Positions 26,579-27,669 of a stretch of 64,000 bases of DNA are shown in pieces. Position numbers and translations under genes: made by a program. The DNA is taken from sequence record OR532896.1. One strand, given 5' to 3'. Numbering within the stretch: the stretch's first letter is position 1; the number at the start of each line of letters is the position of its first letter. Below the pieces are notes generated by a model that did not search any database, had not been told where the DNA came from, and saw only the letters and a list, made by a program, of their open reading frames with translations. Source of the stretch: Klebsiella phage RCIP0102.

Positions 26579-26830
26579 TTAACAGAAGTTCCATTTCTTC
26601 TTGGTGTTATAAACCACTGTTTCCGTATCTATTTCATAGTGTATTTTACATCCAACGCACATGCCATGCCACCAGCAATGCATTCCATCTGAGCCAGTAG
26701 TTCCTTCATGAACAAACTCATCAGATTTACATACGAAGCATCTGAATTCTTCAGCCTTGAATATATTACCAGCTACATCAGATTTATCATAGATGTTCAT
26801 AAGAGGTCCTTGGAGGGCTTTCGCCCTCAC
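26579..26830 (-). CDS. small Cys/His-rich protein (83 aa)
   Basis: ORF track. CFVC...HCWWHGMCVGCKIH pattern. Confidence 0.45.
   Translation of the reverse strand: MRAKALQGPLMNIYDKSDVAGNIFKAEEFRCFVCKSDEFVHEGTTGSDGMHCWWHGMCVGCKIHYEIDTETVVYNTKKKWNFC
26813..26828 (-). other. intercistronic hairpin GAGGGC TTTC GCCCTC
   Basis: Seen directly. Spans the GT stop and the downstream ORF start. Confidence 0.3.
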
Positions 26831-27669
26831 AGATATGGTTCTACCTTACCAAACTCATGGAAGGCCTGAGATTTCACTCGAGTGTTAATACACATACGAA
26901 TTGATTTTAGTGGTTCATCATCACCGAATAAACCACGCCTTTCACCGTCTTTAGATTTCCAACGGGCTTGATTTGGGAAAGCAGCATGTAGCTGTTCAAG
27001 GGCTCTATTCTGACGAGCAGTATCACGCTGAGTAGAGCAACCGCCAGGAGACTGCACTTTGCCGGATTTAACGAGATACTTAAACAGAGCCAGATGAGGA
27101 TGACCCATGTTAATTAATTTTAGAAAAGCATAAGCATCTTCGTTAAGGTCAATAACTCCGTAACCAATATCTTCTGCGGTAAGTTTAGTCAAATCGTAGA
27201 AAGTATTGGTAAACCCAAAGCTGTTCTCGCGATAATGACCCCAGCTTGATGTGATTTTGAAAATCGGCAAGCGAGCATGACCGTGATAATAACCGCAATC
27301 CATAGCAGTCTCGACATATTTGACCATATCATCAAATACTTCTTGGCTCATTGCCTCGCCGACACCAAGCGGAACACGGCGATCGTCGCGTTCACGAATT
27401 TCAGTCAGATGAATAGTAGTATCATCATCAAGCATCCAAATTCGTTGCCCTGCATACATTTCAGTAATCAGACGGCGAGTTCCTGCAATTCCATCAACAT
27501 CATCGGGAATAGTAACAATTTTAGCAGCATGACCATGCCAGGTTTCGTATGCTTCTTTTTCTGATTCACGTACTACAAGATGTGGAACATAACCTTCAGG
27601 AAACATAGTCAGGGCAGTAACTGCCCCGGCACGCTTATAACTTGGAATTACAAACTGAATCATTTCCAC
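26827..27669 (-). CDS. GT-A-fold glycosyltransferase-like protein (280 aa, DxD motif WMLDDDTT) at the beta-gt position
   Basis: N-terminal VIPSYKR and a DDD motif. Located between uvsX and 42, where T4 has beta-glucosyltransferase, but not similar to T4 BGT as I recall it. Confidence 0.5.
   Translation of the reverse strand: MEMIQFVIPSYKRAGAVTALTMFPEGYVPHLVVRESEKEAYETWHGHAAKIVTIPDDVDGIAGTRRLITEMYAGQRIWMLDDDTTIHLTEIRERDDRRVPLGVGEAMSQEVFDDMVKYVETAMDCGYYHGHARLPIFKITSSWGHYRENSFGFTNTFYDLTKLTAEDIGYGVIDLNEDAYAFLKLINMGHPHLALFKYLVKSGKVQSPGGCSTQRDTARQNRALEQLHAAFPNQARWKSKDGERRGLFGDDEPLKSIRMCINTRVKSQAFHEFGKVEPYL

Follow-up and report, generated by a model that had tools for sequence, protein, structure and literature searches.

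A predicted orthologue of the T2/T6 beta-glucosyl-HMC-alpha-glucosyltransferase in the gene 42-uvsX slot of a Klebsiella Jiaodavirus

The window analysed here, 64,000 nucleotides of Klebsiella phage RCIP0102 (sequence record OR532896.1), carries on its minus strand, between uvsX and gene 42, a gene for a glycosyltransferase of the TAGT (TET-associated glycosyltransferase) family. Judging by its sequence, we are very confident that this Jiaodavirus transferase is orthologous to the T2/T6 beta-glucosyl-HMC-alpha-glucosyltransferase (ggt, also called beta-alpha-gt), and we consider it likely that it makes gentiobiosyl-hydroxymethylcytosine (gentiobiosyl-hmC) as its actual product in this phage. 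An earlier note on this DNA, written from the letters alone, had singled out the gene as a GT-A-like enzyme other than T4 beta-gt, standing in the beta-gt slot beside an otherwise intact DNA-modification toolkit, and had proposed a second-sugar chemistry of either the T2/T6 kind or an arabinosyl kind. The former proposal agrees with the evidence laid out below and the latter does not; nor is the finding new, as the note had implied, for both the enzyme and the arrangement were already known, the latter from this very genus as well, and the gene is annotated as such in GenBank.

The transferase matches the Pfam family PF20691 (TAGT) over profile positions 2-205 of 205 (E = 1.7e-9), its 38.3 bits exceeding the curated cut-off of 27.5; T6 ggt itself scores 35.8 bits on the same profile. 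It also matches phrog_842, 'beta-glucosyl-HMC-alpha-glucosyltransferase' (6e-81), and is 65% identical over 277 aa to the RefSeq T6 TAGT (YP_010067197.1, E = 8e-139). The slot is the same as well: T6 ggt lies between gene 42 and uvsX, where T4 has beta-gt and segA. A tblastn search with the protein returned matches in 688 phage records. About 140 of these, mostly Klebsiella phages, encode proteins that are 95-100% identical, several of them annotated as beta-glucosyl-HMC-alpha-glucosyltransferase, an annotation that proteins 100% identical to ours already carry; about 535, mostly Escherichia/Shigella T-even phages, fall at 60-80% identity. Homology to T4 beta-gt was rejected, in line with the earlier note: BLASTP between the two proteins gives E = 0.84, which amounts to no similarity, and a Pfam scan at E <= 1 gives TAGT only. 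Searching the PDB by sequence with the transferase yielded nothing, even with E <= 10 allowed, so no structure of the family is detectable by sequence, and an NCBIfam scan gave no match for either the transferase or the small open reading frame (ORF) that follows it.

The open frame spans 26827..27669 and holds both of the motifs that had drawn attention to it, as MIQFVIPSYKR and WMLDDDTT. We place the gene at 26827..27663 (minus strand; ATG at 27663, stop codon TGA at 26829..26827), which shortens the protein from the 280 aa given in the earlier note to 278 aa, because all 13 of the 13 homologues in the alignment begin at or adjoining the IQ/IK residues after ATG 27663, or a few residues before MIQF, and because this ATG overlaps the stop codon of gene 42 as ATGA. 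The start is preceded by GGTGAG, and the overlap with gene 42 suggests that translation of the two genes is coupled.

An AlphaFold2 model of the transferase, built with 14 homologues, has a predicted local distance difference test score (pLDDT) of 88 and a predicted template modelling score (pTM) of 0.87. When compared with the PDB by Foldseek, the model was matched to the GT-A enzymes WrtF, RmlT, TarS, SpsA and TarP with a probability of 1.00 and a template modelling (TM) score of about 0.5, at sequence identities of only 11-18%. Among these, RmlT, TarS and SpsA are enzymes that we take to be inverting members of GT2. As modelled, then, the transferase is a single GT-A domain, GT2-like and not GT-B, and the GT-A likeness claimed from the sequence motifs is borne out by structure prediction and fold search. 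D79-D80-D81, invariant in the 14 homologues, follow directly after the strand formed by residues 74-77; in the model this is the canonical position of a DxD, the predicted metal/nucleotide-sugar motif. The pair E175-D176 is (nearly) invariant, with D176 invariant in the 14 homologues, and by its likeness to the GT2 'ED' motif it is a plausible candidate for the catalytic base. The mechanism is presumably inverting; with UDP-alpha-glucose as substrate, inversion by a GT-A enzyme would give a beta linkage, which would fit the beta-1,6 bond of gentiobiose. It has been reported that T4 beta-gt has a GT-B fold and that the T6 TAGT is GT-A, a sister of GT2 (PMC13216743).

The T6 sequences used for comparison have peculiarities of their own. 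In MH550421, ggt has an apparent lesion, a TAG at codon 10 (locus excerpt ~7950) where relatives have CAG (Gln), and the annotation starts at Met20. In NC_054907/AP018814 (locus excerpt 39-878), one Asp is missing from the invariant DDD (WMIDD-TT); the protein from this record serves as the reference TAGT in PMC13216743.

The rest of the modification toolkit is present, all on the minus strand, and bears out the claim that genes 42, 56 and alpha-gt are intact. Gene 42, for dCMP hydroxymethylase (27660..28394), belongs to the Thymidylat_synt family and its product is 72% identical to T6 gp42; gene 56, for the dCTPase/dUTPase (20685..21206), belongs to dUTPase_2 and its product is 70% identical to T6 gp56; and alpha-gt, for the alpha-glucosyltransferase (38163..39359), matches PF11440 (AGT) with E = 2e-164 over profile positions 1-354 of 355 and is 65% identical to the T6 enzyme. 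The transferase, at 64-65%, has diverged from its T6 counterpart to a comparable extent, as would be expected from vertical descent of the modification module as a whole. We looked for beta-gt across the full 64 kb and found no homologue, and Klebsiella does not figure in the main phage groups that bear beta-gt. The presence of alpha-gt and the absence of beta-gt both match T2/T6, as does the GT-A/GT2-like model.

With these enzymes, the products of genes 56 and 42 would bring about the replacement of dC by hmC, and alpha-gt would attach alpha-linked glucose to hmC in DNA, providing alpha-glucosyl-hmC as the acceptor. The transferase, as a DxD-dependent, GT2-like GT-A enzyme, would then use UDP-glucose to extend the alpha-glucose by a second glucose, linked beta-1,6, so that gentiobiosyl-hmC would be formed at some fraction of sites. 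Homology, fold, motifs, synteny, the presence of alpha-gt and the absence of beta-gt are what the analysis shows; donor, linkage, acceptor and extent of modification in this phage are inferred. Published work on relatives is consistent with such a pathway: deletion of g-gt in T6 converts gentiobiosyl-hmC to alpha-glucosyl-hmC (bioRxiv 10.64898/2026.02.25.707755, 2026 preprint), and alpha-5-gentiobiosyl-methyl-dC was detected by high-performance liquid chromatography/mass spectrometry (HPLC/MS) in coliphages that carry alpha-gt and TAGT (PMC13390438).

The arrangement itself has been described before. Either alpha-GT or beta-GT together with TAGT is usual among T-even phages, with alpha-gt plus TAGT in the majority (PMC13216743, NAR 2026), and the pair of alpha-GT and beta-GT is found only in T4 and a few close relatives (PMC13216743). 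For the genus, the Jiaodavirus phages Kpn5N and Kpn6N were reported to have alpha-gt and a TAGT-type transferase 'in place of' beta-gt (PMC9960720), and the Klebsiella 'group IX' was reported to have the same pair instead of beta-gt (PMC8056088).

Several points weigh against taking the product of the T6 enzyme over to this phage. We found no nucleoside or liquid chromatography-mass spectrometry (LC-MS) analysis of any Jiaodavirus DNA in the literature, so the Jiaodavirus product is deduced from an enzyme that is only 65% identical. Phages with the same kind of transferase (g-gt) differ widely, with ~5% of hmC gentiobiosylated in T2 and ~72% in T6 (PMC13390438; bioRxiv 10.64898/2026.02.25.707755), and the extent of modification is not predictable from sequence. 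In addition, the TAGT of the window is nearer (69-72% identity) to the TAGTs that adjoin beta-gt in CC31- and STP4-a-type loci and in Melville than it is to T6 ggt (64-65%). The CC31/STP4-a-type groups pair TAGT with beta-gt and are without alpha-gt (PMC8056088); the acceptor specificity of the TAGT family is thus not settled, and the acceptor specificity and function of beta-gt-partnered TAGTs have been left open in print (PMC13216743, PMC8056088). The Muldoon and PS2 loci also combine TAGT with beta-gt, the TAGT in this case being only 52% identical to the window protein.

These points bear most directly on the reading that the transferase is a TAGT with a specificity unlike that of T6 ggt, that is, one using another donor or linkage, accepting either anomer or bare hmC, and making a disaccharide other than gentiobiose. 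The modest 64-65% identity to the characterised T6 enzyme, the 71-72% identity to the TAGTs beside beta-gt in CC31, STP4-a and Melville and the open function of those proteins all speak for it. We nevertheless judge it unlikely, as all of the family-invariant residues are kept, as alpha-gt is present and beta-gt absent, exactly the state of T2/T6 and of the coliphages verified by LC-MS, and as the window has no sugar-nucleotide biosynthesis genes of the arabinose-cluster kind, which makes it likely that the donor comes from a host pool, for example UDP-glucose. An arabinosyl-type (RB69-like) hmC transferase, the other chemistry proposed by the earlier note, is so improbable that we discount it. 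The gene 43-uvsX interval does house arabinosylation clusters in other Tevenvirinae (PMC8056088) and in Serratia phage CHI14, in which the arabinose-type cluster in this interval includes a D-arabinose 5-phosphate isomerase and a capsule-biosynthesis-like gene. However, seven proteins of the CHI14 cluster, used as tblastn queries on the 64-kb window, gave no match at E <= 0.01, so neither the isomerase nor any of the six genes next to it in the cluster has a homologue here; an intact alpha-gt is present, the transferase is itself orthologous to T6 ggt, and in the relatives of RB69 the arabinosyltransferase lies outside the gene 43-uvsX interval (PMC8056088). The arabinosyl system was rejected on the unmatched CHI14 cluster proteins and the intact alpha-gt.

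The gene could also be an inactive relic, leaving DNA with alpha-glucosyl-hmC and free hmC only. In favour of this, T2 gentiobiosylates only ~5% of its hmC, and the apparent ggt lesion in both deposited T6 genomes means that loss or damage in culture is possible. Yet the frame is intact with all invariant residues present, the protein is 98-100% conserved across >130 Klebsiella/Raoultella phage genomes, and the overlap of its start with the gene 42 stop suggests translational coupling; we regard a relic as very improbable. An orthologue of ggt that makes gentiobiosyl-hmC remains the reading we prefer. We also give little credence to the broader idea that either the second-sugar decoration built by the Jiaodavirus TAGT is unlike T6 gentiobiose in its donor, its linkage or its coverage of sites, or the small ORF described next, as a zinc-ribbon protein, modulates hmC-DNA modification or counters a defence that senses modified DNA.

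Downstream of the transferase by 26 nt, on the same strand, lies a small Cys-rich ORF (26579..26800, phrog_11273). A small Cys/His-rich protein had been predicted at this position, and its existence is confirmed; its length of 83 aa, counted from GTG 26830, is not, since the protein more likely comprises 73 aa from ATG 26800. This ATG stands behind the Shine-Dalgarno sequence AAGGA and is the start chosen by independent gene callers and in the annotation of deposited genomes, while the 83-aa version would run translation through the hairpin that separates the two genes. The protein has two CxxC knuckles (C21/C24 and C48/C51) together with H31 and C42, and C21, C24, H31, C42, C48 and C51 are invariant in five sequences from four genera, with the first knuckle being CxC in TG1. 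Our best guess from these residues is a small zinc-ribbon protein. Pfam Zn_ribbon_4 matches only the CHI14 and PEi20 homologues, at a sub-threshold 16.5 bits against a cut-off of 30.3. A large-database search with the small ORF recovered three close relatives only, and its AlphaFold2 model, made from an alignment of just three sequences, has a pLDDT of 44, too low for a fold search.

The earlier note had raised the question of whether the small ORF is conserved as a partner of the transferase. Every Jiaodavirus locus does have the pair, even a variant that is only 77% identical, and the two genes are close neighbours on one strand, as would suit a dedicated partner or subunit. Three arrangements were seen among the TAGT loci examined, though: 42-TAGT-small ORF-uvsX in the Klebsiella type only, 42-TAGT-beta-gt-uvsX in the CC31, STP4-a and Muldoon types, and 42-TAGT-uvsX in the T2/T6 type. 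The small ORF is thus missing from the T6 locus and from all of the T2/T6-type and CC31-type TAGT loci examined, and it occurs in 162 phage records as compared to 688 for the transferase. Conversely, CHI14 (Winklervirus), PEi20 (Kanagawavirus) and TG1 (Tegunavirus) each have a homologue (41-51% identity) immediately upstream of uvsX, in loci that have no TAGT and where the genes adjoining the ORF are unrelated to it; in CHI14, neither TAGT nor alpha-gt was found in 50 kb of the early region. The ORF is therefore tied to the position upstream of uvsX and not to the transferase. An obligate partnership was rejected on this distribution, and a dedicated partner or subunit is, in our estimate, quite improbable. 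The small ORF is common to Jiaodavirus and arabinose-type phages. In the slot behind gene 42, CHI14, PEi20 and TG1 (locus excerpts 2025-3472, 2026-3473 and 1534-3516, respectively) have a protein of ~300 aa (299-304) and one of ~183 aa (182-186), the latter annotated as thymidylate kinase in TG1, which has an additional 153-aa protein; Pfam gave no match for the two CHI14 slot proteins or for the 304-aa and 153-aa proteins of TG1. These slot proteins may carry out steps in the hypermodification of hmC, be it of the arabinose type or another.

The GC hairpin that the earlier note saw joining the two genes is present as GAGGGC-GAAA-GCCCTC at 26813..26828 (minus strand), a stem of 6 bp with a GNRA loop, located between the transferase stop and the small-ORF Shine-Dalgarno sequence and overlapping the last two bases of the stop codon. 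It was rejected as a terminator: with no T-run behind it, it is not a canonical one, it is missing from the calls of the terminator scan, and the predicted folding of its 81-nt context is not superior to that of shuffled sequences (z = -1.6). CHI14 and PEi20 also have a GC-rich hairpin directly 5' of the small-ORF Shine-Dalgarno sequence, with a different stem (GGGCTC-GATAA-GAGCCC, locus excerpts ~3462-3478), and the unit of hairpin, Shine-Dalgarno sequence and ORF seems to be conserved as a structure.

A further stem-loop lies within the transferase gene itself, at codons 12-18 (27610..27628, minus strand; CGGGGCAG-TTA-CTGCCCTG), and was flagged by the terminator scan. Loci of the Jiaodavirus, T2/T6 and CC31/STP4-a types all have it, in the form (C)GGGGCAG-NNN-CTGCCC(TG). 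Synonymous sites of the stem are conserved, with invariant third-codon positions, while loop and flanks are variable. A covariation test of this stem gave no strict compensatory evidence; Muldoon and PS2 have a different hairpin in a different register, a few bases upstream.

The source of the window is, by DNA identity, a Klebsiella Jiaodavirus, a T4-like phage. A 1.5-kb query spanning the locus is 99.5% identical to Klebsiella phage ATCCa and 98-99% identical to dozens more Klebsiella/Raoultella phages with genomes of ~166 kb, and the matched records include PKO111, KPV15 and KpV477, the type species of the genus Jiaodavirus. The window covers an early-gene region of such a phage; every gene in it is on the minus strand, and the order around the locus is 41, 40, uvsX, small ORF, glycosyltransferase, 42, imm, lipoprotein-like ORF and 43. 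The flanking marker uvsX (25321..26496) is intact and its product is 88% identical to T6 UvsX. In the near-identical Klebsiella phage Lion_ER11, uvsX is split by a homing-endonuclease gene (locus excerpt 16168-18500), and that of Yersinia phage TG1 is likewise interrupted (locus excerpt 3774-6352). The spacer before uvsX contains a sigma-70-like promoter match (TTAATA-18-TATAAT, 10/12; 26553..26582, minus strand), which is a consensus match only. On the far side of gene 42, between imm and gene 43, an ORF of 147 aa (28620..29063, minus strand) starts with MKSLLAVTVALTLTGC; it occupies the imm.1 position, has a signal peptide with a lipobox and gave no convincing family match. These features make it a probable lipoprotein.

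Which restriction, glycosylase (Brig1, BapA), GmrSD/BrxU and CRISPR defences a T-even phage escapes depends on its type of hmC glycosylation. It therefore helps in choosing therapeutic phages to know that the Klebsiella Jiaodavirus phages pair alpha-gt with TAGT, as T2/T6 do, even though the gene content itself was already in the literature and in GenBank annotation.

Set beside known systems, the transferase model has its best structural matches in GT2-type GT-A enzymes (RmlT of L. monocytogenes, TarS of S. aureus, SpsA of B. subtilis, and WrtF), with which it shares a DxD after the fourth strand, but those enzymes act on cell wall or polysaccharide and do not modify DNA. T4 beta-gt (PF09198) occupies the same genomic slot and likewise works on hmC DNA, with UDP-glucose; the two differ in that there is no sequence similarity between them, in that beta-gt is GT-B whereas the present model is GT-A, and in that beta-gt glucosylates bare hmC instead of adding to a glucose already in place. 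The TAGTs of Karamvirus, Gelderlandvirus and Muldoonvirus (CC31 CC31p040, STP4-a, Melville, Muldoon) share the position directly after gene 42, and those of CC31, STP4-a and Melville are the closest relatives outside Klebsiella (69-72%, as compared to 52% for Muldoon). In these phages, however, beta-gt follows and no alpha-gt is reported; the acceptor of their TAGTs cannot be alpha-glucosyl-hmC. With T6 ggt, the likeness extends to full-length homology, length class, the slot between 42 and uvsX, alpha-gt as partner with no beta-gt, the predicted GT-A/GT2-like fold and the DDD, while the Klebsiella genus Jiaodavirus is set apart from T2/T6 by 35% sequence divergence and by the trailing 73-aa ORF that T2/T6 lack.

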